DNA of 64,000 nt from Clostridiales bacterium (GCA_021199255.1 JAJQIK010000043.1:1235-65234); one strand, 5' to 3'. Positions 7,424 through 60,416 are shown, counted from the stretch's first letter. Translations and numbers: made by a program. Notes: generated by a model from the letters alone, not told the origin.

Positions 7424-8908
7424 TTATTCAGGCTTTATAACAAACTGATATTTGCCTTTTCCTCGTCCGGCTACAGGTTCAATCAAGCTGGCCTCGCGCA
7501 TCTTTTTGATCAGTTCTCCGGCTGAGTAAGAAGATACCGAGATAATGTTCATAATTTCCGCCCTGCCGAATGGTTGAAAATAACCCACCTTTTCGTAGAC
7601 CTTCAACATTTTGTCCTTCGTAGGTTGTTTTACTTGCAAGCCTGAGATGTTGTCTTGAAAGATAGCTTTTTGTGTTTCAAACGTAGCTTTTCTTTCATCA
7701 AACGTAGCTTTTCTTTCATCAAACGTAGCTTTTTCTGATTGCTCAATCGGTACATGATAATTCAAATTATAAAGTGTTACCCAAAATGACGAACTATCAG
7801 AATAAAACTTCGGTTCCAATTCCGGAAGATAATTAACTGCCGCACGATAATCACTTTTAATTTTCTTGAAACCGCTGCCACATCGCTCCATATAATTCAT
7901 TCGGCTAAAAACATCAGCAATAATTGGATTGCGACGTTTGGAAGGAACCCGATCTGTGTCCAGATTCTACACAAAAGTTCCAGCATACATACCGCCCGGA
8001 GAATAAATCTCCATTCGATCATCATAAATATCTATATGGACTTCACTTCCCGTTTCAAGATAATCGCGGTGAATTAATCCGTTAACAAGGCACTCAAGTG
8101 CTGCCCTTTCGGGTATATCCGGCATCTCAACTCTGCCGTCAGGTGTTTTTTTCCAACGCTTTTTGGTATTATTTTTTATAAAGTCTTCTCCATATTGAAG
8201 CAGGGAAACCAGACTGCCGCTGTATTCCTTATCATCCAAAGCTTCCATAACCCCGGAAGCTTTATCAAGACCATACCACCGGGTACAAAACAAACGAGAA
8301 TGACGTATAGGAGAATCATCCGCCAACAATGCTCCCGCATTCGTGAGCGTCCCTGTTTCATCCATCAAACCGAAAGACACAAAATCAGCTTCTTCCATAT
8401 CCTGACCTGTGCGTAAACGGTAAACCGAACGCAGCCTTGTAAATGAAAGGTCTTTATACTGATAAGGAGACGGCAAGCTGTCATAGGTTTTTCCCGTTCC
8501 ACGCAGAACCAGACGACGAAGGTCTGCTGCTACTGCCGGAATACTTTCATTACCCACACGTATAAACGCTGTTCTTGTCCCATCACCCACGTAATAATAC
8601 GGTGTCTCATCACCGGCAGGTATCCGTAAAATAACAAAGTCTTTTCCATCTTCCTGATGTATTTCTAAAGACACCTGAGGGATAGGATCCAATCGCATCT
8701 TGACTATTTCGCTAATCTTTTCAGCAATGAGCTTTGCGTTTTCAAGACCAATCAGCTGTTCATCATCAGAAACTCCGAAAATAATCGCTCCCCCAATTCC
8801 ATTGGAAAAAGCGCTGACACTTTTCAGCCAACTCTTAGGGCGCTTTTCCTCTAACGCCACCTTTTTATCATATTCTGTTGCCTCTCCGATTAACTTTTTA
8901 ATATTCAA
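7424..8908 (-). pseudogene. AlbA_2 (Schlafen-type) / HATPase_c_4 / wHTH putative regulator, interrupted by an in-frame TAG
   Basis: Track ORFs 7967-8908 and 7424-7900 are in the same frame. My translation across the gap reads ...SPGGMYAGTFV*NLDTDRVPSKRRNPIIADVFSRMNYMERCGSGFKKI, with the TAG at 7967-7969. N-terminal motifs include SVSAFSNGIGGAIIFGV. The start is a TTG with a GGGAGGAG RBS. Confidence 0.8.
7678..7740 (-). repeat. 21-nt tandem repeat x3 (encodes KATFDER heptads)
   Basis: CAAACGTAGCTTTTCTTTCAT occurs at 7678-7698 and is identical at 7699-7719. A diverged copy lies at 7720-7740. All three are inside the coding sequence. Confidence 0.85.
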
Positions 8909-10365: not shown

Positions 10366-10752
10366 AACAAAATTCCTTTCCATATATATCCGGTCATCGA
10401 AATCATTTCTCCGGACGCTATAGACCCTTCTGTACCAGACGGATATAGCATATCGAAATTACCTTTCGATAGTGTATCATATCCCATAAAGAAAGTCCAC
10501 ACAAAAAGAACGTTTGTTCTAATATGTGTGGACTGCTTTCATTTCAGCAAACAGAAACCTTTGTATACGACTTAAAGCTATTTTAGTTCTTCTATGAGCG
10601 GAAGATATTTATTCACTTCATATTCCTCAGTTTCAGTATACCAAATCTCAATTTCCCACGGAGTTTCATCCGTTGCAAACCGCCATTTGGTTGTACTATA
10701 ATGATTATCTGCACATCCTTTTCCAATTTAAACTTATACAGAGGTGATGACA

Positions 10753-44609: not shown

Positions 44610-44614
44610 CTTTG

Positions 44615-45145
44615 CTATTCCTTCCCGCTCAAACGAGCTTTTATCACTCTGCCAAAGCAGAGAAAAAGCGCCAGTCCCAAAACAGCGCCCGCACTGTCTA
44701 TGAGCACATCTCTGACGCAGCCTGCCCTGCCCGCCACAAACAACTGGTGAAACTCATCGCTGCATGCATAGAGGGCGGCGGCCGTGATACTAAGGCCGCT
44801 TCTCCTCAGCACGGTCATCTCCCATCTGCCAATCCAGAGAAAAATCAGAATCGCCAGAATCGCATATTCCGTCATATGCGCGCCTTTTCTGACCGCATTT
44901 TCTATCGAAAGGGCAATTTTTTCCAACTGCTCCTCCCCCAGATGCAGATGCAGAAAAAATCCGGCGGAATCCACCATCTGATAACTAAGCCCCTCGCTTA
45001 CCACGCTGGATTCTTCGTCCGTCTGCGCGGAAAACGCAAAAATCACGCACATCCATACCAGCGCCAGAAGCCCCGCCAGATTTCTCCATTTGCGCACTCT
45101 TCCGCTTTCCGTCCTTTTCTCCAGATTACATTTCATAAGAATCAC
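44615..45145 (-). CDS. VanZ-family membrane protein
   Basis: KGAHMTEYAILA and DEFHQLFVAGRAGCVRDVLIDS are VanZ motifs. Confidence 0.8.
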   Translation of the reverse strand: MILMKCNLEKRTESGRVRKWRNLAGLLALVWMCVIFAFSAQTDEESSVVSEGLSYQMVDSAGFFLHLHLGEEQLEKIALSIENAVRKGAHMTEYAILAILIFLWIGRWEMTVLRRSGLSITAAALYACSDEFHQLFVAGRAGCVRDVLIDSAGAVLGLALFLCFGRVIKARLSGKE

Positions 45146-46133
45146 TCTTCACCTTGCGGGCTGTCACAGATACCCATTCCCCCTGATAAGTCACCTCCAG
45201 TATCTCAAGCCCCGCCGCTTCAACAGCCTCTCTTACGGTTTCTTCCTTCGTATCAATAATCCCAGACGTTATATAAACCCCGCCTGTTTTCATATGGCGC
45301 ACGATTACCGGAGTCAGGGGCACCAGCACATCTGCCAGAATATTGGCCGCCACGATATCATACCGGCCGTAGCCCACCTTATCCTGCACGCTCTTATCCG
45401 TAATAATATTGCCAATCATCATTTCGAAAGCCTCCTGGGGAATCCGATTGGCCTCCATATTCTGGGCTACCGCCTCCACCGCACAGGGATCAAGGTCTGT
45501 GCCAACGGCATGTTTGGCGCCGTACATCAAAGCCAGGATCGCCAGGATACCGCTGCCGGTTCCCACATCTAAAAGCTCCGTCTCCGGCGTCAGGTATTTC
45601 TTAATCTGTCGGATACATAACTGGGTCGTCTCATGCATTCCCGTGCCAAAAGCAGTCCCCGGATCGATATGTAATATCTTCTTGTCCAGATCCTCCTCCC
45701 TGACCTCCTCCCAGGAGGGAATCACCAGAAGATCGTCGATATAGAACTGATGGAAATACTGCTTCCAGTTATTGATCCAGTCGATATCCTCTGTCTCCGT
45801 CACGGTAACGGAGCCTTCCCCGATTTCCATAAAAAGACGCAATTCCTCCAACTCCTGCCCAATCCGGGACAAAAGCGTATCCTTATCTGTGGGTACGCCC
45901 CCCGCCTCCAGACTGCCGTCCTCCTTTTCCTCCACAAAAAAGCTCAGATACGCAATCCCATCGTCCTCCGGCCCATCAGGCAGGATATCCACAAACATCT
46001 GCTCCTTTTCCAGCGCGGTCAGGGGAATCTTATCCTCAATCTGCGCACCCTCTAAGCCTATATCATAGAGGGCGCTGATAATAATGTCTTCCGCTTCCGT
46101 TACTGTTTTAATTCTGAATTTCATCCACTTCAT
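45126..46133 (-). CDS. prmA: Ribosomal protein L11 methyltransferase PrmA
   Basis: IDPGTAFGTGMHETT and LDVGTGSGILAI are present. Confidence 0.9.
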   Translation of the reverse strand: MKWMKFRIKTVTEAEDIIISALYDIGLEGAQIEDKIPLTALEKEQMFVDILPDGPEDDGIAYLSFFVEEKEDGSLEAGGVPTDKDTLLSRIGQELEELRLFMEIGEGSVTVTETEDIDWINNWKQYFHQFYIDDLLVIPSWEEVREEDLDKKILHIDPGTAFGTGMHETTQLCIRQIKKYLTPETELLDVGTGSGILAILALMYGAKHAVGTDLDPCAVEAVAQNMEANRIPQEAFEMMIGNIITDKSVQDKVGYGRYDIVAANILADVLVPLTPVIVRHMKTGGVYITSGIIDTKEETVREAVEAAGLEILEVTYQGEWVSVTARKVKSDSYEM

Positions 46134-46204
46134 GAACTATAACCTCGTTTCCTGCCGCTTCTTTGTTTTCCGTCCCGACGGCCTGGCTTATCGCCGACAT
46201 TATA

Positions 46205-47500
46205 TTATTCGTCCGCTTCCGCGTTGGCCGCCGTTTCAGCCAGCTCGTCCTGATCCGTCTCCTCCTGTTCCGTTCCCGTAACGGAAGGTACGTCGGGGGT
46301 AATCAGATGCTCCTCGTCCACGCCGTACTGTACATACTCGCCATACTCCTGCCAGATATTGCATATCCATGTCTTACCCTGATTAAAAATAATCTCATTG
46401 CCTTCTTCATCATAGAACTTCGCCGGCGTAAAATCACCGTCATAACGAAGCCAGGTTCCCTGAATCACCCTGCCGTTGGTAAAGATAATGGCGTCCCCTT
46501 CTCCATGTACGCCAAAAGCAAGATAATCATGGTCGTCTCTGACCTCCCCGTGGCAATACTGGAACACCACATTGCTTACCGCAAGCTGCTCATTGTTATA
46601 CTCGTCTATCTGCGCTTCGCCGTCCTGATAGCGATAGTATAGCTGATCCTCCTCATGATATTCAAAATAAGGATGATATGCGCCATATCCGCCGGAGTTT
46701 CCGCCTGACTGGCCGCCCGGATAAATCAGGACAGCCTCCTCATTCTCCGCATAATCCGCCGTCACATCATCTGCCGCGAACAGAAACGGCGCCACATAAT
46801 CCTCGTCATAATTCCAGTCATAGCCCAATCGCTCGACTGCCTCGAACAAACCCTCAATGTCCAGATACCCCGTAAACTCGGTAGCATAGCCCGGACGGCT
46901 GACTCTCTTAAACGCTTCGTCAGCGGGATTATGAATCCCATCTACCGCCGCGCTGATATTATAGTAATTGGGTCTGTTAATCAATTCCTCCACATAGGGC
47001 TTGGCAAGACCCCAGTTACAGTAAATCGCCTCATACCCCATAGCCACATATACAAAATAATCACGGCTGCTTCTCACCGGCCCGATTCGATCCAGCTCAT
47101 CAAAGTTCTCAAAAACCGCCATCAGTCTGGTAATCCTTCCTTCCACCGGAGCCTCATAGATAATCCCCGCCTGCGACAGGCCATACTGAGGCATAGCCGG
47201 AGCGTTATTGGGAATCATAACCGCAATCGGTCTTCTCTCCGCCTGCTGTACGTCCGTCCATTCTCCTGTCAAAAAGCTCTGTATCTCGCCGTTTACTTCC
47301 TCGCGCTCTTCAATCACCGGATATGCCGTAGTCAGCTCTTCTTCCGGCTCCTCCTCCGGTTCTTCCGGAATCACTTCTTCCTCCTGAATTTCCTCCGTCT
47401 CCGGTTCGGGCGCGGGTTCTTCCGAGCTGCCGCAGGCTGTCAGAACGGCTGATGCCGCCAACACCGACGCCATCAATAAAGCTGTTTTCTTTTGAAACAT
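46205..47500 (-). CDS. DUF3048 (YerB-like) lipoprotein
   Basis: A lipobox (LTAC) is present, with the DUF3048 blocks RPIAVMIPN and GIIYEAPVEGRITRLMAVF. The start was set at 47500, which has an AAGAGGA RBS. Confidence 0.8.
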   Translation of the reverse strand: MFQKKTALLMASVLAASAVLTACGSSEEPAPEPETEEIQEEEVIPEEPEEEPEEELTTAYPVIEEREEVNGEIQSFLTGEWTDVQQAERRPIAVMIPNNAPAMPQYGLSQAGIIYEAPVEGRITRLMAVFENFDELDRIGPVRSSRDYFVYVAMGYEAIYCNWGLAKPYVEELINRPNYYNISAAVDGIHNPADEAFKRVSRPGYATEFTGYLDIEGLFEAVERLGYDWNYDEDYVAPFLFAADDVTADYAENEEAVLIYPGGQSGGNSGGYGAYHPYFEYHEEDQLYYRYQDGEAQIDEYNNEQLAVSNVVFQYCHGEVRDDHDYLAFGVHGEGDAIIFTNGRVIQGTWLRYDGDFTPAKFYDEEGNEIIFNQGKTWICNIWQEYGEYVQYGVDEEHLITPDVPSVTGTEQEETDQDELAETAANAEADE

Positions 47501-47556
47501 ATTGTCCTCTTTTCCGCATATTAAAGCTAACGCTGTATGCTTTTGGCTTATCACAA

Positions 47557-47586
47557 CGCGGTTACGGCAGTACTGCCGTAACCGCG
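47557..47586. repeat. 30-bp perfect palindrome (hairpin, probable terminator of the S8 protease gene)
   Basis: CGCGGTTACGGCAG-TA-CTGCCGTAACCGCG has 14-bp arms. The U tract on the minus strand is weak. Confidence 0.5.
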
Positions 47587-47676
47587 AATGATTTTATTAT
47601 ACCCGAAAATGAGCGGAGTGTACACTCGAATCAGGGAAAATTCAAAAAGACTGTTCCGGGCGCCCTATGCGCCATA

Positions 47677-50600
47677 TTATTTAACTACAAACTTCAAGCT
47701 TAACGTTTTGTTCGTCGAGTCCATCGCCTTAATGGTAATCGTGGCGGAGCCCTTCTTAGCCGCCACAAATTGAATAGTTCCCACTCCGGAGCTCGACGAA
47801 TAGGATATGGTAGGCGATATGACCGCCGGCGAAGAGGAGCTGCAGGTCATGGGCGACTTACAGTCGGAATAAAAATACATAATATATACACCGCTGCTTG
47901 CGTAATAGGAACCGGCATAGAGATAGGTCGTCGCGGTCGTCGCATAGACAGAATACGACCTGCTGACGCCGCTTCCGTCCCGCGCCGTAGCCGTAACAGA
48001 AACTGCCTTCGTACCGGAAAGAGACGCCTGCTTCGAAAGAGATACTTTACCGGATGAGCTGACGGAAATGCCCAGACTCTTAGCGGCGTCCGAAACGCTC
48101 CATGTCACATTCTTATTAGAAATCGGGCCGCACTCCGTCTCCAGGGTCGCAACAAGCTGTACGCTCTTGCCCGGAGCCACATATCTGCTGGCGCCGTTTT
48201 TCGGCGCAATATTAATTCTGGATACCGGGTTGATCACCGTCACGGTACAGGAAGCCTTCTTATTACTTCCATCTGTTGCCGTTAAGGTAATCGTCGCTTT
48301 TCCGGTGGATTTACTGCTGGCGGTTAACGTAATCTCACCGGTCTCCTGATTCACCGTCGGAGATACCAGCGCTGAATTACTGCTGGCGACCGTATACGCC
48401 GAAGTATTGGCTCCGTCGGAAGCCGTAATCACAGCATATAATGTTGCTTCCGAAGCTGCCGTGGCAATCCCTGTTCCGGAACGGAACAGGGTCAGCTTAC
48501 TGACCTTGGACGTTTTAGCGCTGTCTCTTATCTCCACCTTCGTGATACCGCCGGTTACCGTAACAGCGCACGTCGCTTTCTTATTGCTCCCATCGGTAGA
48601 AGCAATCACAATATTAGCCTTTCCATACTGTTCACCGGTAGTCGTCAGCGGAATCTGCACCGTATAGCTGCCGTCCGTATTCGGTTCTGTTGTCGTTTCG
48701 CCTATGGTAACCACCGCTTCCCTGCTGCTGGTGACCGTATAAGCGTTGGGATTAAAACTGGAGGAACCTCCCGCTCCCTTAATCGTAGCTGTAATCGTCT
48801 GAGTGTTTGTCCTGTATGTATCAACATATTGGGTATACAGCGTGGTCTTGGTAGTATCCAGCTTAATCTCGCCGATCGCTCCGTCATAGATGGTAACGTC
48901 CTGAGTAGCCACAGCGCCTTTGCCATCCGCCGCGGCAGCCGTCACCGTATAGGTACCCGCTGCCGCTCCTGCTTTCACCGTAAGCTTACCGCTGGAGGCA
49001 TTGATCGTCACCTTAGGGTCATCCGACTCAATACTCCACAGCACCTTTTTATTGGTCGGCTTTGTGGGATTTAACACGGCTTTAAGCGTCATGCTCTTTC
49101 CCGCCGCCACAGTAAAGAGCGTCTCATCTGTCTTCCCTTTATCCGTAGTGATCGTAATGCCTGTGACGCCCTGCTTCACCGTAATCTTAATGGTCGCTTT
49201 CTTATTGCCATTATCCTTCGCTTTGGCGGTAATGGTGGCGGTTCCCGCAGCATAGGCTGTTACTGTTCCGTCCTCGTCCACAGTGGCAACTGCCGTTTTA
49301 TTGCTGCTCCATGTTATGTAATCGGAAAGGCTGCCGCTGCCTATCTGCTCCAGCGAACCTTCCTCATTCTTTATTTTCGCAATCAGACCCTCCGCTAACT
49401 CCAGCGTAGGATTTTCATCCTCCTGTGTCAGCCATAATTCTTTCACGACATTCCTGTCAAAAGCAAGGCTCTGAACGGCGGCTCCTGACGCTACCACCTG
49501 TATTGAATATTTCGCTGAGGCCTGCCCGTCGTCCTGCGCCGTAACAATGACCTGATAATCTCCTATATCCGCCTGCGCTGTGGCCGTGATCCTGCCATTC
49601 TGGGTGATGCTGATTTTCGCGGTATCAACCGCAGCCCCGTCAGAAGTCTGCAGTTCCCAGGTAACCTTTTTATTAGATGCGTAAGCAGGCGTAACCGCCG
49701 CGGAAAGCGTAATACTCTTTCCCTGCTCTACCTTGGTGGAGCCGGAAACGGTAATGGCTGTCACATAAGGCGACAGGCTATAGGCCTGGGACTTCACGGC
49801 GCTGGCCACACCGCTTTCATTCATAGCAAAGGCCTTGACGGTACCCTTGGCGGCCTGGGAACAATCCAGCGTAAAGGTAACCTCATTTCCCTCCACAAGC
49901 GTCGTATTCGCGTCCGTCTCTTCATTCTTATAGACCGGAGTTTTACCGTTTGTGGTATAGCATAGCTGCATATTTGCCTGCGCTTTAATCGTTACCGCAG
50001 CAGACTGCTGATCCTCCGCCAGCGTAATCGTAATAGTCGGCGCATTGGGCTTCGCAGACGCCGTAGTCAAATTAAAGACCTTCGTCAGGGAAGTGATTCC
50101 CTTCCCCATGCCAGAACCCGCGCTGATCACATTACTCTTCATGACAGACTCCAACGCATCCACCCTGTCCGCGCCGGATTTATTCTGTAATGCGGACAAA
50201 TCCTCCTGTGCCGATAAAATAACCGCCGCCTCGCCTGCGGCTACCGGACAGGCCATAGACGTCCCCTGCAGGGAACTGTAGCTACTTCCCAGCGTAGAAT
50301 AAATATTCACGCCCGGAGCCGACAAATCCACTGTGGAACCATAATTGGAGAAATAAGCCCTCTGATTATTGGTATCTGTCGCGGCTACTGCAATCACATG
50401 ATCGTAAGCGGCAGGGTACATCATCACAGAACCCCCGTCGTTACCTGCGGCCGCAAATACAATCACGCCTTTCTGATACGCTTTGTCCAGAACAAACTGC
50501 CAGGCGGAGCTGTAACCAATCCCGCCAAGGCTCATATTGATAATATCCACCCTTGGTTCTGTGGTACTGACACTGTCGCTGGTGGTATTGTCCTCTTCCC

Positions 50601-51807
50601 CGATCAGATAATTAATAGCCGCTATGATGGTGGAATCGCTGGCGCTCGAACCTTCAAACACCTTGGCATTATAAATCTGCGCATCCGGCGCAACCCCCAC
50701 GCCCTGACTGCCATTAGCCAGCGCTGCGATAATCCCCGCCACGTGAGTGCCGTGTCCCAGCACATCAGACGTATCGTCGCTCTCTTCATCACAGAAATTT
50801 GTTGCCGCAAATATATTTGAGGCCAAATCGTCATTTTCATCGATGCCGCTGTCAATAACGCCTACTTTGATAGAATCCCCTGTGTAACCGGCCTCCCAGG
50901 CATAAGGAGAACCGACTGTCGTATGAAACCACTGATAATAGTCGCTGTCGGGCAGCAAATACGGATCCTCGTATCCGTCAAGCTCCATTAATGCCTGCTC
51001 GTATTCTTCGAGCGTATTGTCACTCTCAGTTTCTGTTTCCTCTTCATATAATGTACGAAAATAATTAGGCCACACCGCCGGTAAATTATTATCCATGCTG
51101 GAAGCAACCGTTATCGCTGACTTAACGCTTACATCTTCACTAAGCTCCAAGGTCAAAACTCCCATGTCAAAGCTTATCACTTCCGCCTGATACGCTTCTG
51201 CAATCATTTCAGCTTCTTCGCCGCTGTCTGCAAAAGTAATAATCTGCCCCTCGGCGTAGGTGTCCCCCTCTTCACTTTCCTTAACCTCCGAAAGAGTTTC
51301 CGACAGTTCCTCTTTTAGCGCTATCTGGGCTGTCGTCAACTGATAATCCGACGGCATTGCAGAAAAACCGCTCAAATCATCCTCTAAATCCTCTTTCTCT
51401 TCAGCTTCTGCCTCCTCCGGCGTCTCTTCTGTTTCTTCCTCCTCTGTTACCTGTTCTTCCCAGCCAACGTCTTCCGACGTTGATTCATTATTTTCTTCCT
51501 CCGATTCCGTTTCCTGCGTGCCTTCCTCTGAACCGCTATCCTGCTGATCCGTTCCAGACTCTTCCGAACCGCTATCCTGCGATTCGCTGCTGTCCTCCTC
51601 CGCTTCAGCGCCCTCAGACTGATTCTGCACGCCATCTGTTTCTTCGGTTCCCAAATCAACTGACGCCGCCTCTTCCTCGTCAACGTAAGCTTCCGCTGCA
51701 GACTCTTCCGCGTATACAACAGAAAAATCTGCGAAAGGCTCCGTCAGCAATATGGCCGAAATTACATATGCTATTATCGTTTTACGTAATTTCTTAAGCT
51801 TATTCAA
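47677..51807 (-). CDS. Secreted S8 (subtilisin-family) serine protease with acidic N-region and multiple Big_2 Ig-like repeats (1376 aa)
   Basis: A signal peptide is present. The catalytic blocks are VGVIDSGID (Asp), HGTHVAGIIAA (His) and GTSMACPVAAG (Ser). The C-terminal half has repeated motifs of the form ...LSAAVTPAYASNKKVTWE... The start is a TTG after a GGAGGAG RBS. Confidence 0.9.
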   Translation of the reverse strand: MNKLKKLRKTIIAYVISAILLTEPFADFSVVYAEESAAEAYVDEEEAASVDLGTEETDGVQNQSEGAEAEEDSSESQDSGSEESGTDQQDSGSEEGTQETESEEENNESTSEDVGWEEQVTEEEETEETPEEAEAEEKEDLEDDLSGFSAMPSDYQLTTAQIALKEELSETLSEVKESEEGDTYAEGQIITFADSGEEAEMIAEAYQAEVISFDMGVLTLELSEDVSVKSAITVASSMDNNLPAVWPNYFRTLYEEETETESDNTLEEYEQALMELDGYEDPYLLPDSDYYQWFHTTVGSPYAWEAGYTGDSIKVGVIDSGIDENDDLASNIFAATNFCDEESDDTSDVLGHGTHVAGIIAALANGSQGVGVAPDAQIYNAKVFEGSSASDSTIIAAINYLIGEEDNTTSDSVSTTEPRVDIINMSLGGIGYSSAWQFVLDKAYQKGVIVFAAAGNDGGSVMMYPAAYDHVIAVAATDTNNQRAYFSNYGSTVDLSAPGVNIYSTLGSSYSSLQGTSMACPVAAGEAAVILSAQEDLSALQNKSGADRVDALESVMKSNVISAGSGMGKGITSLTKVFNLTTASAKPNAPTITITLAEDQQSAAVTIKAQANMQLCYTTNGKTPVYKNEETDANTTLVEGNEVTFTLDCSQAAKGTVKAFAMNESGVASAVKSQAYSLSPYVTAITVSGSTKVEQGKSITLSAAVTPAYASNKKVTWELQTSDGAAVDTAKISITQNGRITATAQADIGDYQVIVTAQDDGQASAKYSIQVVASGAAVQSLAFDRNVVKELWLTQEDENPTLELAEGLIAKIKNEEGSLEQIGSGSLSDYITWSSNKTAVATVDEDGTVTAYAAGTATITAKAKDNGNKKATIKITVKQGVTGITITTDKGKTDETLFTVAAGKSMTLKAVLNPTKPTNKKVLWSIESDDPKVTINASSGKLTVKAGAAAGTYTVTAAAADGKGAVATQDVTIYDGAIGEIKLDTTKTTLYTQYVDTYRTNTQTITATIKGAGGSSSFNPNAYTVTSSREAVVTIGETTTEPNTDGSYTVQIPLTTTGEQYGKANIVIASTDGSNKKATCAVTVTGGITKVEIRDSAKTSKVSKLTLFRSGTGIATAASEATLYAVITASDGANTSAYTVASSNSALVSPTVNQETGEITLTASSKSTGKATITLTATDGSNKKASCTVTVINPVSRINIAPKNGASRYVAPGKSVQLVATLETECGPISNKNVTWSVSDAAKSLGISVSSSGKVSLSKQASLSGTKAVSVTATARDGSGVSRSYSVYATTATTYLYAGSYYASSGVYIMYFYSDCKSPMTCSSSSPAVISPTISYSSSSGVGTIQFVAAKKGSATITIKAMDSTNKTLSLKFVVK

Positions 51808-51829
51808 TGCTCCTCCGCCGCTTCATATA

Positions 51830-52222
51830 CTATTGTTCTTCCTCCTGCGGCATGGAAGAATCATATAGACTCTTCTGATAATTAAGGTACAATGTGGGAT
51901 AACCGTTGTCCTCCCCTCTGGCTATCACCTGCTCAGGATCTTCATCGGTATCATAAGTCGCAACCCCATTCTGAAAAGACACAAAAACAATTCCATACTG
52001 TCCTGCAATCTCTTTTGCCATTTCCTCGCTTTCCGCCAACGCCATCAAAGGCTCCGACTCAGACACAACTCCTGAAGATGGGTACACCTCCACGGCAATG
52101 GTATGTATCAAGGGAAATGCCGGGCCAATATCAAAATACATAAACAAGATATACCAGGCAATTAATATCAATATAAGAGCTGTCACAATTACTATGATTA
52201 TTTTCAGCATCTTCTGTTTCAT
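51830..52222 (-). CDS. Membrane-anchored 130-aa protein homologous to the pro-region of the downstream S8 protease
   Basis: An N-terminal TM helix is present. ESEEMAKEIAGQYGIVFVSFQNGVATY...GYPTLYLNYQKSLY aligns with protease residues around 195-265 (SGEEAEMIAEAYQAEVISFDMGVLTL...NLPAVWPNYFRTLY). Confidence 0.65.
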   Translation of the reverse strand: MKQKMLKIIIVIVTALILILIAWYILFMYFDIGPAFPLIHTIAVEVYPSSGVVSESEPLMALAESEEMAKEIAGQYGIVFVSFQNGVATYDTDEDPEQVIARGEDNGYPTLYLNYQKSLYDSSMPQEEEQ

Positions 52223-52383
52223 CTCTTCTCCTATGATCCTGCCGCTTAAACAATTCTATGAAAATTATAACACCATATCTTAGAAAACGCAAAAATAACC
52301 AACTAATCGTTACTTTCTTTACCAACAAGAACCAGCAGAACAATCCATTAAAAGTCCGCGATAAAACTTCCCCAAAAGGAAAC

Positions 52384-52427
52384 CGCTGTGAATTAACCGG
52401 AAACCGGTTAATCCGCAGCAGTTTTTT
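52384..52427. terminator. Long imperfect hairpin terminator after the giant galactanase gene
   Basis: The core is GAATTAACCGG-AAA-CCGGTTAATCC, extended by CTGTG and GCAG. A T6 run follows on the plus side, and UUUCCUUUU follows on the minus side. Confidence 0.55.
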
Positions 52428-52442
52428 GCTTTCCTGTTCTTT

Positions 52443-55400
52443 TTATTTGATAATAAATTTCTTCACTGCCGTTCCGCTATAATTCCCGATACCTGTAATG
52501 GTAGCCGTTGCAGTTCCCCGCTTATTATTATCCGTATATGTTACCACATAATCAGTTCCCGCTTTAAGCTTCCTGCCATTGACGCTGATTGACCAGGAAG
52601 GCGTTACCGCCTTATTCTTATAGGTCTGTGCGGTTATATCCTGTACGCAGCTTGACGTAATGGCCGCTGTTGTAATGGCGTAACTGATCGTTTTAGACTG
52701 CTTCACAGCGCCCTGAGCGCCATTCAGGCCTTTTTCCTTAATAATCACATAAGGATTGGCGGTCGTTTGGGTGATCTCACCGGTTGCCTTGCCCGATATC
52801 TTCTTATTATTCTTATAGCTGACCGAATAAGCTGTATTTAATTTCAAGTCCACTTCTACGCCGTAATTTTTATCGATAAAACGAATTGTGGGCTTGACAG
52901 CTTTGCCGGTATAAACAGCCGGCGCTACGTAAATCGCAAGATCATCCAGCGTTCTGTCTTGTACTGTAAACAGATTCTTTACCGTTATTTTCCCTTTGTA
53001 ATTGCCTTTTCCGGTGATTACCGCATATGCCTCGGCGCCCGCCTTGACATTATTCTTATAGGAAATGGTATAATCTGTTCCTTTCTTAAAGACTACACTG
53101 GTACTGCCGTTGGTTACCTTAATTTCTTCCAGATCCGGCGTAATGGCATAGCCTGTATAATAGCGTTCGGTTCCATAAACAGAATCTGATTCAATTTCAG
53201 GCTTCTCGGAAATGACCGCGCAGGTTTCCTGTTGTTTTTCCGTCAGTTCATCTCCCTCCCAATTTGCCAAAAGCGTTCTTTGGGTGATTTTAAAGGTAGC
53301 CGTCTTAGTCCCGGCATAATCGCCCATGCCTTTAATCGTAATGGTCGCTTTACCGGTTTTCGTATTATTCTCATAGGTTGCCGTATAATCCTGACCCTGA
53401 ATCAACGTTTTCGCATTCGCGCCCTTACCAACCGTAACCGTCAACTCCTTGGCTTCCGTATCCTCTTCGTCTGTTTTGGCGCTCAGGCGGATCGCAGAGC
53501 CTGTATACACTTTGTTAGTAGTCTTCACCGATGCGTTGGAAAGTAAATACTCTTTTCCCACCACGCGCAGGGTTGCAGCAGCTTCTCCAGTATAATTACA
53601 GTTTTCATTCGCCGTGTTGGCGGTAACCGTTACGGTATACGTTCCCTCTTCCCGGACTTTATTCCCTTCCACGCTATTCCCGGATACGGAAACCGTATAT
53701 TGACTGGAGGAAACGGTTTTAGTGCCGTCCTTGACCGTAACGGTAGGGGCGGTTGCCCGGCTGGGGGCGATAATATCCTTAGCCGTTACTTCAATGCTGA
53801 AATCGCTCAAGGACTTCCTGCTGATCGTAAACGAGATATCCGCACTCTTGCCCGTATAATTCCCCTTTCCGGTAATCGTCAGGTAAGCTGTTCCCGCATT
53901 GGTATTGTTTTTGTAGGAAACCGTATAGTCCGTCCCCTTCTGCAATACCACTTTTCCATATTTCACCGCAACATAGGGCGTTATCTTTTTACCTGTATAG
54001 GTACTTCCCGCCGGTGTACTGATGGTAATGCCCGCTTCTTCGGTAATCGGCCGCTTCGCGATTGTAAAGGTTTGCGTATAAGAGCCTTTGCAGTTCACGC
54101 CATCTCCGATGATAATAACAGAAGCCTTTTTACCTACCTTAATATTATTTTGATATGCTACAGTATAATATTCCGACGATAACTCTTCTTCTACTTCTTT
54201 CTTGACCGCCTTGCCTGTGTCCGCATCTGTTTCCGTTATGGTTTGCCTGTAAGTAATTCTCTTGACTTCCGGTTCAATCTCTTCCCCGGTATAATAATAA
54301 TTATTCTGTGCCGCATCATAGCCGCCCAATTCTACAGAGGGTTTGATTTTGGACAGATCGATTCTGGTATCTTCTACGATCTTGAAAGTCGCCGTTGTCT
54401 GACCCGTAAACTTACCTTTCCCTGTGATAGTTACAGCAGCTGAATCTGTCACCTCTCTATTATTTGCATAAGCAACGCTGTAATCCTTGGAAGTCAGCGT
54501 ATATCCTTTATAAGTAACAGATATCCCCGGTTTAATCGCCTTGCCCGTATAATATTGGTCTTCTATCTCAACGGATGCCCCGCTGATATCAATCGGGGTA
54601 TCGCTTTCCAGCACGTTGACAAATTCCGCGCTGACCGTCACATTGCCCGCCGGCATCGTAAAGGAAGCCGTCGTAAAGGTCACCGAATCGCCATAAGTTA
54701 CGGTGGCTGTGGGGGATGTGCCGCCCTCTTCCGAACCGGAAGCAAAGGAGGCGCTGCCCTCGGAACCGCTCAAAATTGCCCCGGCCACAGAATTGCCCGA
54801 TACGGAAACACTTCCTACCGTATAACCGGTATCGGCTTTCACCGTAACCCTGACCACCTCGCCATTATCCGGCTCCAGATCGCTGACCGTAATACTGCCA
54901 TTCTGGGAATCAGCCACTTCCACCTGATAACTGCCATAGAGATAGAGATCATCGATCCAGCCCCAGGCGCCCACTTTCGTGGTGCTAACCTCAAAGCCAA
55001 CGGTAACCGTATCTCCTTCGACGACTTCAATTCCGGCAATCTCCGGATTCTGCCAGTTCAGCCAGCCGCCCAAAGAGCAGCCGTCTTTATAGTTTGTTGA
55101 CGTGCCATCCTCATGCTTCACGGTAACAACAGCATACTGGACGTCCTTTTCCGCCGCGGAGCCTCCCTGTATATAACCGCCAAAGGTATAAGTGCCCGGC
55201 GTTAAACCCGTCAGAGTCTGCGTAACCTTGGCACAAAAGGCGTTCGAGCCGCTCTGATAAAAATTAACTCCGTTGCTGCCTGTCCGCGCATTATTCTCAT
55301 CAGATGCGATTTTCCATGTATCGCCATCGTTCTTTTCCGTCCTGCCGTCTTCCCGCGACCAGTTGCTGTCGCTTCCCTCAAAGCTGGGATCGGTGAGCAC

Positions 55401-58400
55401 ATTTCCTGTGGGCATTACCTTAACAGTCAAGGTCACATTATATTTCTTGGTCTGAGTCGTCCCGTCTGAAGCTTCTAATGTGCAGACGGCTACGCCCGAT
55501 ACGGTATACTCCCCCGTTTTGTCTGTAGTTATCTCGTCCTTCTGCTCCTGATCCCAAGTGACAGGCGCTGTTCCAGTGGTGCCGTCATTATATTTGACGG
55601 AAACGGTGCTGATATTATCCCAATCGATGCTTTCTCCCACGGATACCGTAGTCTCTACGATACTCTGTACCTCTGAAATGTCCAGAGAAGCCGAGGCTCC
55701 CGTCCTGATCAGGCTGTAAATCTTCGCCGTAGGGAGAGCTGTCCCGTCAAAATCAAACCATGCCTGATTATCCACAGCGCTGCCGCCGTACCACAGACCC
55801 GCATCAGTGGGATCATATTCATAAGAATAACTGGACGCCCAGCCGGAGCCATATTCCTCCCACAAAGCCTGATTCTGCTTATAGAGATTCTGATCCACGC
55901 TGCCATCCGCATTATAAACATAGTAAGCGGACAACCAGGCGGGTTCCCAATAAAATACGCCCAGTCCTTTTCCGGCATAGCTGTCGTTCACTGCATTGAC
56001 CGCGTTCACCACGTCTCTGATTTCATTGGCCTGTCCCTGTATGGAAATATCGTAATTCAAATCCTGGCCGGAGGTCTTAGGCGCCGAATTGCCGTGTCCA
56101 TCGCCATCCTCCCATGTGGTCGCCCAGGAGGTCTCCGCCACCATGACGTATTTTCCCTGTTTGGCAACTTCTGTCAGGGCTGTTGTAAGCTGGCTTGTAG
56201 TGCCATGCCAGTAGGGATAAAAGGAAGCGCCGAATACATCATAATCCACATCGGCCAGTACCCCATTTACATAAGTGCTAAACCCACTCTGCGGATCTGT
56301 GAAATGAACCGCTACCAGGCAACTGGAATCAAATTTCCTGACTGCTGACGCTCCCGCCTTAAAAATTGTATTCATGCCTTCTGTAGAGGTTTCCCCGCAG
56401 ATACCGCTGTTGGTCTCATTTCCCACCTGCACCATGCCAACATCAACACCGGCAGCTTTCAGTTCATTCAGACTGTCTAGGGTAAAGTCATAAACCGCCT
56501 CCGCTTTCTCGTCAAGCCCGTAGCCTGCCCAGGCCTTCGGCGCGTCATATTTAGCAGGGTCAGACCAGAAATCCGAGTAATGGAAATCGATCAGCACCCT
56601 CATTCCCGCGTTAGTAGCGTATTTACCGATTACGATCGCCTTGTCCAGATCAGAATTACCGCCGCCGTAACCGTTATGATTACTATCGTAGGGATCATTC
56701 CATACTCTGATACGAACCCAGTTCATACCGCCGTCATACAAATAATTAAAAAACTCCTGATCCGTCAGCGCATTGCCGTCTTCGTCCTTAAATACCACGC
56801 CGCTTTCTTTCAGCGCAACATAAGAGGAAAGGTCAGCGCCTGTAATGAAGTCGTCCGAGAGCGCAATCTGTTCTACGTTTACGGAGGCTTGCGTAGCATA
56901 CTTTAACGCCTCGATTGCCGCCGTAAGCGCTTCAATGGCTCCTTCAATCTCTTCGTCTGTCGAAGCTTCGTTTTCCGCGACCTCTTTTGCGGATTTCAGC
57001 GCCGCCTCAAGCGTTTCCCATGTCGCCGCCGTATAGTCCGCTTCCACAAGGCTCTCAGCCTCCGCAATCAGCGCCTGAAGCTGCGCCAGCTTGCTGATGG
57101 TGTCGGAAAGCACACCGTCCTTATAATATATATAACCCGAGAACACGGGCGTAATGTCCACGTTCCAATCATCGGCTGTCCCGCCGTTGATGAAATTCAT
57201 CTGCCATGTGTATGAACCGTCATTATCCGTATATAATTGGAATACCTGACCGCCATCCTCCGCGTCCGGCACGGAAAAGGTCAGATAATACCAGTTTGAC
57301 GCCGACTCATCGGCTGTCATGTCGTAATATTGATTGCCCCATTCGTCTGTATCATCCGCCGTAAGCGCTGCAGCCGTGCCTGTCGAAGCGTCAAGGGTTT
57401 TTATTTCCTCTTCGCTCATGATTGCGGGCGTTCCCGTATTGTCATACACATACATTGTCACATTTCTGAGCGCTGCCGTCGCATCATCGCCGGCGTAGGC
57501 TATGAAATCCTTAACAGCATACTGCTCTGCATCGCCTGAAACAAGCGCAGCATAAATCTCCGTATAATTCCACTGCTGAGAGCATGACCATATTGAACTG
57601 CCATCCACATAGTCACCGTTCTCATCAACAGACGCTGTGTAAATTTCAAATCCCTCTTCCGTGTTGGCAGTATCTCCGAACTCCATATCAATGCTGTACC
57701 AGCCCGAATATGCCGTTTCGTTCATGAGATAAAAGGTTGTTCCGCTCCACGGCGTCCAGCTCGCCTCCCCGGCTTCGCCCCAAGTGATGGTTTTCTGCCA
57801 TGAATACACGCCTACCTCATAATCCGTTTCACCCACATAATAGTATAAGGTAATCGCAGCATTGCTGACCACCATCGCATCTACGGCTTCCTTAAGTGCC
57901 GTATACGCATCCGTGATGTCGTCGCCTGTCGTCGTTTTGACATCATCATCGTTTACATCCGCATAGGTTTCGTCTATCAGTTTGTTTGCCGCCTCTAAAG
58001 CACTGCTGAATGTACTCCACAAATCCGTATCGTAGCTGTCCTCTCCATTTTCTGTAATCGCCATTACATCATCAGATATGACAAGCTCCTTGAGCATTGC
58101 AAGCGTGATGCCCTCCGCAAGCTCAATTGATGAATAAAATGTTCCGTCCTTATAATATACATCTCCGTCAAATACGGGGGAGATGTCAGTATTGTAATCA
58201 TCAGCCGTTCCGCCGTTGATAAAATTTGTTACCCAGCCGGTCGAATTTTCCGAATAGAGCTGACATACTGTATCACCCTCGTCCCCCGCAGGAACGGAGA
58301 AGGTCAGGCAATACCAGCTTTCCTCATCTTCTACCGCCGTCATGGAATAGAAATTTCCCCAGTCCTCAGTGTAGGATGCCGTAAGCGCCGTAACCGTTCC

Positions 58401-59549
58401 TTCTTCCTCATCAACACATGAAAGCTCTGTGGCGGAAGCGACTTCAATCGCCGGCGTCCCTGCATCATCGTACACATACAGCGTCACATTTCTCATCAAC
58501 GCCGTTATATCGTCGCTTCCCGTGTAAAGCACGGAATTTTTCACCGCATAGTCAGTATCATCACCGGAAATCAATGCGGCGTAGACCTCCTTGGCATCAT
58601 ATTCAGCCGAGCATTTATACAGCGCGCTGCTACTTTCTATCCCATCCGATGTGTAAGCGTATAACTCAAATCCACTACTCATACCCTCGTCGGAAAAAGC
58701 CACGTCAATGCTGTACCAACCCGCATACTCTGACGCAGTCATAGTATACGCATCGCCTTCGCTCCACAAATATGCACTGCATGCAGCTGCCTCTGTAGAG
58801 ATATTGTCACCCCAGTAATAAAATACAGGCTCCGCATCTGCACTATAATAATGCAGCGTTATCGTCACGTCCTCAAGCTCAAGCCCCTCAGCCGCCGCTT
58901 CCAGCGCCTCATACGCTTCGGTAATATCAGCCGCGCTGTTATCGTCAGTTTTGTCGCTATCTTCCAAAATTGTTTTAGCCCCACTCAATGCCGTTGACAT
59001 TGCCGACCATGAAGCCGATGTGTATTTTGACTCATCATAATCTTTATAAGTATCATACAAGGTCTGAAGCTGCTCTTTTGTATAATAGTCGGAAACTGCC
59101 TCAAGCACAATGTTATCTATATGAATCTGCTGTTCCGTACTATTGCTGTCGCTCAGCGTGCCCGAAACCTTAACTGTCACACTCGAATTATTGTCGCTTG
59201 TTATCTCAAAGCTGTCCGTTGTCAGCTTACTCCATGTTCCCCACGCCGATGAAGCCGAGCTTAAATCCATTGATGCAAGCGTGGTATCATCACCCGAAGT
59301 CACAGTCAGAGTAAAGCTGTCGGAGCTGTACTCACCGCCGACATACACTGACGCCTTATACTTACCCTTATCAACACTTTCCAGTGTCTGACTTGCGAAT
59401 ACTGATGTTTTAGAATTTGCCCACTTATATAAATAAGTTGTGCTATTACCGGTATTATATTCGCTTGTCGTATAGTCTAAATTTAATATCGTCCACGAAT
59501 CATCCTCCGAATCCTCAAAATCCCCGTTCGTCAACAGATTGCCGTCCAT
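52443..59549 (-). CDS. Giant multidomain GH53 endo-beta-1,4-galactanase (2368-aa ORF; signal peptide encoded separately upstream, see 59711-60040)
   Basis: - The GH53 core lies at about 55710-56861 (GMNWVRIRVWNDP, VQVGNETN, VMVAETSW).
- An N-terminal CBM-like jelly roll is present.
- A roughly 245-aa module is duplicated at 58134-58868 and 57111-57857.
- FIVAR-like helices and a Big_4-like domain are present.
- A second CBM (CBM61-like) is present.
- Eight C-terminal Ig-like repeats follow. Confidence 0.85.
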   Translation of the reverse strand: MDGNLLTNGDFEDSEDDSWTILNLDYTTSEYNTGNSTTYLYKWANSKTSVFASQTLESVDKGKYKASVYVGGEYSSDSFTLTVTSGDDTTLASMDLSSASSAWGTWSKLTTDSFEITSDNNSSVTVKVSGTLSDSNSTEQQIHIDNIVLEAVSDYYTKEQLQTLYDTYKDYDESKYTSASWSAMSTALSGAKTILEDSDKTDDNSAADITEAYEALEAAAEGLELEDVTITLHYYSADAEPVFYYWGDNISTEAAACSAYLWSEGDAYTMTASEYAGWYSIDVAFSDEGMSSGFELYAYTSDGIESSSALYKCSAEYDAKEVYAALISGDDTDYAVKNSVLYTGSDDITALMRNVTLYVYDDAGTPAIEVASATELSCVDEEEGTVTALTASYTEDWGNFYSMTAVEDEESWYCLTFSVPAGDEGDTVCQLYSENSTGWVTNFINGGTADDYNTDISPVFDGDVYYKDGTFYSSIELAEGITLAMLKELVISDDVMAITENGEDSYDTDLWSTFSSALEAANKLIDETYADVNDDDVKTTTGDDITDAYTALKEAVDAMVVSNAAITLYYYVGETDYEVGVYSWQKTITWGEAGEASWTPWSGTTFYLMNETAYSGWYSIDMEFGDTANTEEGFEIYTASVDENGDYVDGSSIWSCSQQWNYTEIYAALVSGDAEQYAVKDFIAYAGDDATAALRNVTMYVYDNTGTPAIMSEEEIKTLDASTGTAAALTADDTDEWGNQYYDMTADESASNWYYLTFSVPDAEDGGQVFQLYTDNDGSYTWQMNFINGGTADDWNVDITPVFSGYIYYKDGVLSDTISKLAQLQALIAEAESLVEADYTAATWETLEAALKSAKEVAENEASTDEEIEGAIEALTAAIEALKYATQASVNVEQIALSDDFITGADLSSYVALKESGVVFKDEDGNALTDQEFFNYLYDGGMNWVRIRVWNDPYDSNHNGYGGGNSDLDKAIVIGKYATNAGMRVLIDFHYSDFWSDPAKYDAPKAWAGYGLDEKAEAVYDFTLDSLNELKAAGVDVGMVQVGNETNSGICGETSTEGMNTIFKAGASAVRKFDSSCLVAVHFTDPQSGFSTYVNGVLADVDYDVFGASFYPYWHGTTSQLTTALTEVAKQGKYVMVAETSWATTWEDGDGHGNSAPKTSGQDLNYDISIQGQANEIRDVVNAVNAVNDSYAGKGLGVFYWEPAWLSAYYVYNADGSVDQNLYKQNQALWEEYGSGWASSYSYEYDPTDAGLWYGGSAVDNQAWFDFDGTALPTAKIYSLIRTGASASLDISEVQSIVETTVSVGESIDWDNISTVSVKYNDGTTGTAPVTWDQEQKDEITTDKTGEYTVSGVAVCTLEASDGTTQTKKYNVTLTVKVMPTGNVLTDPSFEGSDSNWSREDGRTEKNDGDTWKIASDENNARTGSNGVNFYQSGSNAFCAKVTQTLTGLTPGTYTFGGYIQGGSAAEKDVQYAVVTVKHEDGTSTNYKDGCSLGGWLNWQNPEIAGIEVVEGDTVTVGFEVSTTKVGAWGWIDDLYLYGSYQVEVADSQNGSITVSDLEPDNGEVVRVTVKADTGYTVGSVSVSGNSVAGAILSGSEGSASFASGSEEGGTSPTATVTYGDSVTFTTASFTMPAGNVTVSAEFVNVLESDTPIDISGASVEIEDQYYTGKAIKPGISVTYKGYTLTSKDYSVAYANNREVTDSAAVTITGKGKFTGQTTATFKIVEDTRIDLSKIKPSVELGGYDAAQNNYYYTGEEIEPEVKRITYRQTITETDADTGKAVKKEVEEELSSEYYTVAYQNNIKVGKKASVIIIGDGVNCKGSYTQTFTIAKRPITEEAGITISTPAGSTYTGKKITPYVAVKYGKVVLQKGTDYTVSYKNNTNAGTAYLTITGKGNYTGKSADISFTISRKSLSDFSIEVTAKDIIAPSRATAPTVTVKDGTKTVSSSQYTVSVSGNSVEGNKVREEGTYTVTVTANTANENCNYTGEAAATLRVVGKEYLLSNASVKTTNKVYTGSAIRLSAKTDEEDTEAKELTVTVGKGANAKTLIQGQDYTATYENNTKTGKATITIKGMGDYAGTKTATFKITQRTLLANWEGDELTEKQQETCAVISEKPEIESDSVYGTERYYTGYAITPDLEEIKVTNGSTSVVFKKGTDYTISYKNNVKAGAEAYAVITGKGNYKGKITVKNLFTVQDRTLDDLAIYVAPAVYTGKAVKPTIRFIDKNYGVEVDLKLNTAYSVSYKNNKKISGKATGEITQTTANPYVIIKEKGLNGAQGAVKQSKTISYAITTAAITSSCVQDITAQTYKNKAVTPSWSISVNGRKLKAGTDYVVTYTDNNKRGTATATITGIGNYSGTAVKKFIIK
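52446..54575 (-). repeat. Eight tandem coding repeats of about 65-85 aa (YTGKAI.P...GTDYTVSYKNN...ITGKGNYTG...F.I)
   Basis: I counted the repeats in the translated C-terminus of the 2368-aa ORF. Confidence 0.8.
57111..58868 (-). repeat. Two copies of a roughly 245-aa module of unknown function inside the galactanase
   Basis: Residues 228-472 align with residues 565-813. Shared blocks include ITL.YY, GWYSID, RNVT.YVYD..GTPAI, W.YLTFSVP, NFINGGTADD and YYKDG. Confidence 0.8.
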
Positions 59550-59710
59550 CGTGTCCTCGTCTGTCGTTTCTCCAGCTCCGGAAGTATCTCCCTCCTCTCC
59601 TGTACTCTGTACCGTTTTTAATACATTGGAGCCGGACGCCGTACCTCCGTTTTCCGTCTGATTGTCTTCCGCATCAGACTCCTCTGCCGTTTCGGAAGCT
59701 TCCTGCTGTT

Positions 59711-60040
59711 CTACCGTATCGCCAGCTTCCTGTTCCTCGGTGGAACCAGAATTACCCCCCCCGCAGCATTTTGGCCATCATCCGACCCCTCTTCACCTTC
59801 TGCCGCATTATTCTCATTTTCAGTGCTGCCAGCATTGTTCTCTGTTCCTTCATCATTCACGCCGCTGCTGTCATCCGTATCGGCGCTTTCTGACTGACCA
59901 GACGATTCCTCCGTCATTAACGCCGTTTCTACGGCGTCTGCCTGTATTGCCGTAACGGGCAGACCGGTCACCGTCAGGGCAGCCGCAAGCAATACGCCGC
60001 ATAACTGCCTGGTTAGTTTTGTTACGCTTCTTCTACTCAT
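59711..60040 (-). CDS. N-terminal signal-peptide plus acidic-linker fragment of the galactanase, out of frame with the main ORF
   Basis: MSRRSVTKLTRQLCGVLLAAALTVTGLPVTAIQADA is a Sec signal. The frame diverges at the G8 tract and stops at 59711. Confidence 0.75.
   Translation of the reverse strand: MSRRSVTKLTRQLCGVLLAAALTVTGLPVTAIQADAVETALMTEESSGQSESADTDDSSGVNDEGTENNAGSTENENNAAEGEEGSDDGQNAAGGVILVPPRNRKLAIR
59755..59762 (-). repeat. Homopolymeric G8 tract (C8 on the plus strand) at the frame junction of the galactanase gene
   Basis: The tract was read directly from the sequence. A G9 or G6 tract would fuse ORF 59711-60040 to ORF 52443-59549 without any intervening stop. Confidence 0.95.
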
Positions 60041-60168
60041 TTCTCTCCTCCATCAGCGCATATCATGCGCATTTCAAACCTGGCATAAGCCTTCCGGCCT
60101 GAAATAAAATCAATGTGATCGATGTATGTCCCCTATACAAACATTGACCAGTATCTTTTGCAACTGCC

Positions 60169-60235
60169 TGCGCAATGTTGCGCAATCGGTTGCGCTTTCT
60201 ATTTCTATTATATGCGACAAAAATTATGAACACAA
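60169..60235 (-). promoter_or_regulatory. Galactanase promoter (TTGTGT-17-TATAAT) followed by three phased TGCGCAAT/TGCGC boxes
   Basis: On the minus strand, the -35 box lies at 60235-60230 and the -10 box at 60212-60207. TGCGCAAT occurs at 60169 and 60179, and TGCGC at 60191. GCGCAA-CCGA-TTGCGC forms an inverted repeat, typical of LacI/GntR-type operators. Confidence 0.4.
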
Positions 60236-60352
60236 GCACTTTTCTATTGTTCTATTTAACAATCTTTCTCTGGGAATTTTATGGAAAACTGCCAAAAAGA
60301 AGACTTGCCAGGAGAATGCTTTTATCAGCTTTGAACACATACCTGCCATACG

Positions 60353-60383
60353 CAAAAAAAACAGCGGGGAAGCTCCCCGCTGT
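60353..60383 (-). terminator. Intrinsic terminator of the dnaK operon
   Basis: CAGCGGGGA-gcu-UCCCCGCUG is followed by U8. Confidence 0.85.
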
Positions 60384-60416
60384 CAGATTGTTATACTATG
60401 ATATTTGACAGGCTAT

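Follow-up and report, generated by a model that had tools for sequence, protein, structure and literature searches.

A run of eight G parts the signal peptide from a giant GH53 galactanase in a gut Clostridiales genome: a candidate phase-variation tract

In the 64,000-nucleotide (nt) stretch of Clostridiales bacterium DNA analyzed here (GCA_021199255.1, JAJQIK010000043.1:1235-65234; hereafter the window), a gene whose domains point to a giant GH53 endo-beta-1,4-galactanase as its product is split by a run of eight G residues (G8) into two open reading frames (ORFs), the first of which (ORF A) carries a signal peptide and the second of which (ORF B) carries the enzyme. We read the G8 run as a slippage-prone poly-G contingency tract, that is, a phase-variation tract, which may have been caught at its OFF length. 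This is the best-supported of the explanations that we weighed, and it is strengthened chiefly by an in-frame run of nine G (G9) at the homologous site of a divergent relative; we give it about an even chance of being correct.

All window features of the split gene lie on the minus strand, so that the tract reads C8 on the plus strand, and their coordinates are collected in Table 1. ORF A begins MSRRSVTKLTRQLCGVLLAAALTVTGLPVTAIQADA and continues into an acidic linker that runs up to ...GQNAAGG, where the tract is reached, after which its 13-codon out-of-frame tail reads VILVPPRNRKLAIR and ends at a stop codon. ORF B begins MDGNLLTNGDFEDSEDD / MDGNLLTNGDFEDS and carries no signal peptide; its GH53 profile match is full-length, and it has matches to FIVAR and Big_4 as well. 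The initial annotation of this DNA had described just such a pair of ORFs, with frames that differ by +1/-2 nt; this account is accurate, and its hand translation of the bridging region agrees with the computed frame of ORF B from the tract onward. In that frame the sequence is open and linker-like (GGGNSGSTEEQEAGD...TMDGNLL), and the change from linker-like to non-linker-like composition sits exactly at the tract in both frames. Repair of the tract to G9 or to a run of six (G6) gives a single ORF with no further stop, whereas G10 would meet a TAA right after the tract. In the G8 state, translation from the ATG at 60040 stops 13 codons past the tract, and the remainder of the linker is left untranslated because there is no in-frame ATG, GTG or TTG ahead of 59549 from which ORF B could start earlier. 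The tract occupies codons 94-96 of the 2,532-codon gene, which places it in the 5' part of the coding sequence, and it is the only lesion, of a single nucleotide, in 7.6 kb; the remainder of the gene is open, and the ATG and the GGAGG element ahead of it are intact. The signal peptide is likely cleaved at A-D-A/V.

Table 1. Features of the split GH53 gene and its upstream region in the window.
Feature	Coordinates	Strand	Description
Whole reconstructed giant GH53 endo-galactanase gene	52443..60040	-	2,532 aa with G9, 2,531 aa with G6
ORF A, 109 aa	59711..60040	-	Signal peptide, 60 aa of acidic linker and 13-codon out-of-frame tail, ending in TAG
Sec-type signal peptide, 36 codons	59933..60040	-	Basic n-region, hydrophobic core, A-D-A then V
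G8 homopolymer (C8 on plus strand)	59755..59762	-	Frameshift site; in-frame lengths G9 (Ala-Gly-Gly-Gly) or G6
Acidic linker remainder	59550..59754	-	Open in the ORF B frame only; untranslated in the G8 state
ORF B, 2,368 aa	52443..59549	-	CBM-like NGDFE domain, FIVAR, two repeated modules, GH53, Big_4, C-terminal Ig-like repeats
GH53 catalytic domain (ORF B aa 902-1276)	55722..56846	-	PF07745, E = 7.6e-106, profile positions 1-338 of 340
Shine-Dalgarno GGAGG	60047..60051	-	Read from sequence, putative function; 6 nt upstream of the ORF A ATG (60040)
Candidate promoter of the GH53 gene, TTGTGT-17 nt-TATAAT	60207..60235	-	Read from sequence, putative; contains no homopolymer tract
Intrinsic terminator of dnaJ	60360..60384	-	Separates the GH53 gene from the dnaK-dnaJ operon

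The relatives of this protein keep the same elements in one frame. With ORF B residues 1-400 as query, an exhaustive HMMER search gave 311 relatives, and in every one of them that has such an N-terminus a conserved Sec signal peptide, an acidic linker of 90-150 aa and the NGDFE domain are encoded in a single frame. The window signal peptide is homologous to those of the roughly 20 family members with which it was compared (for example, RRSLCGVLSAAMILAGSAIPDMAVQAAQ; the alignment reads ...RQLCGVLLAAALTVTGLPVTAIQADA in the window and ...RSLCGVLSAAMILAGSAIPDMAVQAAQ in the relatives), and this homology points to a secreted product, the substrates of GH53 enzymes being extracellular polymers. The giant Lachnospiraceae GH53 proteins L002, P0143, P0144, P0158, P0168 and P0292 share with the window gene the order of signal peptide, acidic linker, NGDFE CBM-like domain, FIVAR, GH53 and Big_4. 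The closest orthologue, L002 (metagenome-assembled genome (MAG) JAJQDE010000027), is one intact ORF of 2,508 aa with its own signal peptide and acidic linker, and its identity to the window protein is 58% overall and 78% across the N-terminal 536 aa of the query. Given the one-frame layout of the whole family, the split in the window is a departure from the family norm that is due to one nucleotide. Word-index protein searches were of little use: the N-terminal 500 aa gave one weak match and ORF B aa 1-362 gave none. The first of these may have been swamped by the acidic low-complexity linker in its query, although the second query contained no linker. A protein-pattern scan (alignment A1) returned no relatives.

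The strongest support for a maintained tract comes from the site itself in other giants. In the aligned linker column of the window tract, Gly-Gly-Gly is present in four other giant GH53 proteins (P0143, P0144, P0158 and P0168), each the representative of a separate cluster. The flanks of the triplet are DDGQNAAGGGNSG in the window, DDGEETGGGYDV in both P0143 and P0158, NSSGGGYNA in P0144 and ETSGGGSDV in P0168. DNA was read for one of the four, P0143 (L029, ENA ERZ27293310, 42% GC), in which the triplet is encoded by ACT-GGGGGGGGG-TAC, a pure G9 at 936-944 that is in frame within an intact 2,648-aa ORF and is the only G/C run of at least 6 in the 10-kb contig. This is not the coding that the gene would be expected to choose: GGG makes up 8.4% of the other Gly codons of L029, which puts the probability of three successive GGG codons at 6e-4, and a run of at least 9 arose in 0.95% of synonymous shuffles of the L029 gene and of the window gene alike. 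In addition, the window run begins with the third position of a codon (GC-G) and the L029 run with the first, which suggests that the conserved feature is the nucleotide run rather than particular codons. In the two DNA sequences compared, the tract thus appears to have been kept beyond what amino-acid sequence and codon usage would lead one to expect. Since the adjacent structured domain of L029 is only 38% identical to that of the window, a G9 in one gene and a G8 in the other is what a contingency tract predicts and what neutral Gly codons do not. The initial annotation had recommended a comparison of the tract in related genomes, and with L029 in frame at G9 and three further cluster representatives carrying the triplet, the outcome of that comparison favors a maintained mutable tract.

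A second lineage may hold both states of a comparable switch. P0292 is a 2,806-aa GH53 protein in which signal peptide, linker and enzyme lie in one frame and in which a tri-Gly motif (ENQGGGLKV) occurs at a linker position other than that of the window. P0152 (857 aa) is encoded on a separate Logan contig of 2,970 nt and lacks the signal peptide; it matches P0292 residues 200-1056 with 100% identity and starts at the first Met, 47 codons past the GGG of P0292, although its contig has room for about 400 nt more. Because a gene caller would extend an open frame to the signal-peptide start, the frame of P0152 is probably broken upstream, and the tract would be the obvious place for the break. 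From these protein data, P0292 and P0152 are likely an ON/OFF allele pair. Similarly, P0274 (207 aa, from a Logan contig of 5,832 nt) lacks a signal peptide and begins in the linker, just past the site homologous to the ENEGGGLKDD of P0162. Both P0152 and P0274 are probably further OFF-state alleles.

Taken as a switch, the locus would work as follows. In the ON state the tract would be G9, and the reading ...QNAAGGGNSG... would join signal peptide, linker and enzyme into one exported polypeptide of 2,532 aa. The OFF state would be G8 as sequenced, one G short and the commonest product of replication slippage; since ORF B lacks both a signal peptide and any in-frame start ahead of 59549, presumably no secreted galactanase is made. 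Slipped-strand mispairing during replication would convert G8 to G9 and back, and if such conversion is frequent and reversible, the gain or loss of one G would toggle a costly extracellular enzyme within the population. We read the tract as a maintained contingency site because divergent homologues have it at one and the same point in the linker, despite their codon usage. Several hallmarks of contingency loci come together here, namely the location of the tract, the toggling of the frame, a product that is secreted as judged by signal-peptide homology, and conservation beyond codon usage. The initial annotation had proposed a phase-variation switch, and the part of the proposal that concerns the anatomy, the length-dependent fusion and now the comparison with homologues has stood, while neither length heterogeneity nor reversibility was seen in this organism.

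A number of observations weigh against the contingency reading. The G8 run by itself is not statistically unusual: it is the sole G/C run of at least 7 in the window, but 46% of synonymous-codon shuffles of the 56 kb of coding sequence produced a G run of at least 8, compared with 3% for a run of at least 9 (about 1% for the GH53 gene alone). Tracts of G8 or G9 are also at the short end of those known to phase-vary. Within its own species, only G8 was seen for the GH53 gene, and the allele comes from one sample alone; the exact G9 and G6 proteins are absent from a collection of 15 billion proteins, and when JGI metagenomes were scanned for exact copies of the tract's flanks separated by a variable gap, there were 0 matches. 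Conservation at the DNA level is based on two sequences, and the window gene is the only one in which an out-of-frame tract was seen at that level. About 18 of 25 family members, including the closest orthologue L002, have neither the tri-Gly motif nor the tract. Lastly, the genome holds at least one ordinary pseudogene, in which a TAG at 7967-7969 interrupts the frame.

The last of these points also counts for the alternative that survives best, to which we give a distinctly smaller, if still appreciable, chance: a recent pseudogene, in which a one-off deletion reduced G9 to G8 in a recently acquired accessory gene and the inherited Gly3 run has no role in switching. Such a history is in keeping with the single tract length observed, with the absence of the tract from most family members and with the accessory nature of the gene. 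In the window, the 7.6-kb GH53 gene lies between dnaJ and a small ORF (51830-52222) that is followed by an S8 peptidase gene (47677-51807), whereas in the species whose DnaJ is 91% identical to that of the window (the P0003 and P0004 species) a small membrane ORF and the S8 peptidase gene come directly after dnaJ, and in the L004 species (DnaJ 93% identical) dnaJ is followed by unrelated genes with no GH53 gene. When window positions 52223-60416 were compared with L005-L007 and L011-L014, the whole GH53 gene proved to be an insertion. From its position between dnaJ and the small ORF and S8 peptidase, and its absence in sister species, we conclude that the gene is accessory, and in L002 the orthologue is found in another neighborhood altogether, beside ddl, murF, an aldo-keto reductase gene and a helix-turn-helix gene. 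No mobile-element genes were seen at the borders of the insertion, and in the closest partial DnaJ relatives (P0010, P0094 and P0024) the contigs end inside dnaJ. The idea that ORF A is a remnant of the small post-dnaJ ORF was rejected: the two have no similarity, and the window retains its own copy of that ORF.

Four considerations count against a pseudogene. No second lesion is found across 7.6 kb, and neither the multiple lesions nor the loss of start codon or ribosome-binding site by which gene decay is recognized are present. An all-G run at the homologous site of a GGG-poor gene as divergent as L029 would not be expected of neutral Gly codons. The pair P0292 and P0152 probably represents the ON and OFF alleles of one gene, identical over their shared length, in another lineage. 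Moreover, runs of G8 and G9 revert at an elevated rate, so that an inactivation of this kind is not strictly one-way.

We consider it unlikely, if more probable than recoding of the message, that the tract was simply miscalled, the true length being G9, the gene intact and one G lost in the consensus. In its favor, indel miscalls classically fall in homopolymers, and no G/C run in the window is longer. Apart from the tract the gene has no flaw, and the in-frame G9 of L029 makes G9 the expected intact state; it has also been reported in work on Bifidobacterium breve that database lengths of G tracts can be in error and that Illumina reads misbehave at such tracts (PMC9187656). Against this, the Logan assembly of SRR15221298, which was built separately, contains a 5,857-bp contig with the same G8 and 100% identity to the window across the 5,270 bp fetched. 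The identical ORF A is present in Logan contig SRR15221298_2318, exact look-ups of ORF A and of DnaJ found matches only in Logan SRR15221298, and the exact sequence of ORF B was on no recorded contig; in the NCBI record of the source contig (120,987 bp) ORF A and ORF B stand as separate proteins. The clean k-mer assembly of SRR15221298 argues for accurate reads rather than an assembler-specific artefact, and the G8 is probably real DNA. However, SRR15221298 may be the read set behind the record of the window itself, and since the two G8 assemblies are therefore not certainly independent, a miscall is made less probable by their agreement, though only in part.

The remaining genes of the window speak to the same question. 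That its assembly might be full of homopolymer indels was considered and rejected, as no other indel-type gene break was found among its ~55 genes. At 6169-6922 the overlap of ORFs is that of a normal MNT/HEPN gene pair, and 24919-26735 holds a FecCD gene and an ABC ATPase gene. The one further broken gene that was found, AlbA_2/HATPase_c_4, is interrupted by the in-frame TAG already mentioned, which is a substitution rather than an indel; on the minus strand this codon splits the gene into pieces of 313 aa (8908..7967) and 158 aa (7900..7424), and the Pfam HATPase_c_4 domain runs on across it. The break is thus a nonsense pseudogene or a substitution error and is unrelated to homopolymers.

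Recoding without any change in the DNA, by which a -1 ribosomal frameshift on G_GGG_GGG or slippage of RNA polymerase would give some full-length secreted enzyme, is very improbable: a -1 shift on GC-G_GGG_GGG-GTA would yield the exact G9 product AAGGGNSG and the heptamer in the ORF A frame fits X_XXY_YYZ, a match that is formal only, but efficient bacterial slippage sites are A/T-rich, no Shine-Dalgarno-like element lies 10-14 nt upstream of the tract, the in-frame G9 of L029 means that the family does not depend on recoding, and -1 frameshifting was rejected for want of a stimulatory downstream structure (for the 75 nt downstream, fold z = -1.1 with 28 of 200 shuffles as good; z = -2.0 with the tract included).

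The contingency reading has close counterparts in known systems. Simple-repeat phase variation is textbook for the surface antigens of pathogens. In Campylobacter jejuni, Neisseria and Haemophilus, Gram-negative pathogens that often have weak or absent mismatch repair and that carry tens of such loci, poly-G/C tracts resemble that of the window in being runs of at least 8 toward the 5' end of genes whose products are secreted or lie at the surface, in toggling the frame by one nucleotide and in being retained against codon-usage expectation; their targets are mostly glycosyltransferases, adhesins and restriction-modification genes, and not exo-enzymes that degrade polysaccharides. Closer in lifestyle are the sortase-dependent pilus genes bbr_0113a/b (G11) and bbr_1889a/b (G10) of B. 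breve UCC2003, in which replication slippage at the tract is an ON/OFF switch; there the tract splits the first pilus gene into 'a' and 'b' ORFs, G9 fuses bbr_1889, and the mouse gut enriches for the ON length (PMC9187656). Both organisms are Gram-positive gut commensals whose poly-G tract lies early in a gene that encodes a secreted or surface protein, both show length-dependent fusion, and in both the second ORF is without an independent translation start. They differ in that B. breve belongs to the Actinomycetota, while the window belongs to the Bacillota (Lachnospiraceae), in that the product is a pilin there and a glycoside hydrolase of 2,500 aa here, and in that the tract is 10-12 long there and 8 or 9 here; switching in B. 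breve was measured by maximum-depth sequencing, and here it is proposed from the sequence. The literature that we searched contains no case of repeat-mediated phase variation in a Lachnospiraceae glycoside hydrolase or in polysaccharide-degrading enzymes, and as far as that literature goes simple-repeat phase variation has barely been described in the dominant gut Firmicutes. If real, the GH53 tract would be a switch of familiar type in an unusual setting, namely an extracellular fiber-degrading enzyme of giant size from gut Firmicutes. The nearest DnaJ and GH53 relatives are from Lachnospiraceae MAGs, and so the placing of the organism among 'gut Clostridia' in the initial annotation is reasonable.

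Poly-G tracts of variable length also occur at a neighboring position in this clade. In the sister species with DnaJ P0003, a pure poly-G tract lies ~100 nt downstream of dnaJ (L006 5274-5285; L005 5336-5345), immediately upstream of an extended -10 element (TGTGnTATAAT/TAGAAT). The tract was read in L005-L010 and L018-L027, and across 12 samples, with nearly identical flanks, its length was G9 (one sample), G10 (six), G11 (two), G12 (two) or G13 (one). Seven loci from six samples have a common downstream sequence; among these the tract varies between G10 and G13, while the preceding 400 nt differ from L005 by the same 4 changes. Two Logan contigs terminate at or beside the tract. The sequence that follows it exists in at least three alternative forms, with differing small membrane ORFs and S8-peptidase genes of 1,333, 1,364 and 1,469 aa. 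In the P0004 species the corresponding tract is interrupted (GGAGGGGAGGGG). Poly-G length polymorphism is therefore real in the clade and visible in the same kind of assembly data, and the tract of the sister species is likely a phase-variable or rheostat promoter.

We tentatively extend these observations to a more general proposal, which we hold as possible but would not put on a level with the contingency reading of the window tract itself: that a conserved poly-G contingency tract in the linker of giant secreted Lachnospiraceae GH53 galactanases allows stochastic switching of a public good, with producers and cheaters as a form of bet-hedging on pectic galactan, and that together with the G9-G13 promoter tract of the S8-peptidase locus it forms part of an unrecognized poly-G 'phasome' for secreted enzymes of gut Firmicutes. 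Were this true, a single consensus genome would be insufficient to read the fiber-degrading capacity of a Lachnospiraceae strain, 'frameshifted' carbohydrate-active enzymes annotated in MAGs might be functional, and heterogeneity between producers and non-producers of an exported 2,500-aa enzyme would offer a tractable model of a public good in the gut. If the tract is instead a miscall or marks a fresh pseudogene, the two proteins annotated in the public record need to be merged or flagged.

A second MAG of the same species, L028 (GCA_965304835.1, CBDLOQ010000010.1), has 98.9% nucleotide identity to window positions 44555-52159. Its contig begins 284 nt downstream of the GH53 stop codon, which leaves the tract outside its coverage, and it has an N-gap inside the S8 peptidase gene and a split DUF3048 gene. 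That the contig breaks at the border of the GH53 insertion may mean that some strains have the gene and others lack it.

Upstream of the GH53 gene, the candidate promoter was missed by a consensus scan because its -35 hexamer fits the consensus at only 3 of 6 positions. In the ~165-nt leader between its -10 element and the start codon there is a perfect inverted repeat, GCGCAA-N4-TTGCGC, at 60180-60195, with an additional copy of TTGCGCA just downstream on the minus strand; the repeat might serve substrate-dependent regulation as an operator or a leader hairpin. In the intact orthologue L002 (ATG at 5608), a T12 run at 5536-5547 stands directly upstream of the extended -10 of the promoter (acgTGtTATAAT), and the linker, which has no G tract, contains in-frame GAG-rich tandem repeats (EEESDSEEELLEE...); these two are potentially length-variable elements of another kind. 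Toward the other end of the window, the MNT-HEPN pair, which is toxin-antitoxin-like, and a RhuM-family gene (9322-10383) lie on the minus strand near the broken AlbA_2 gene, and this neighborhood looks like a small accessory or defense islet.

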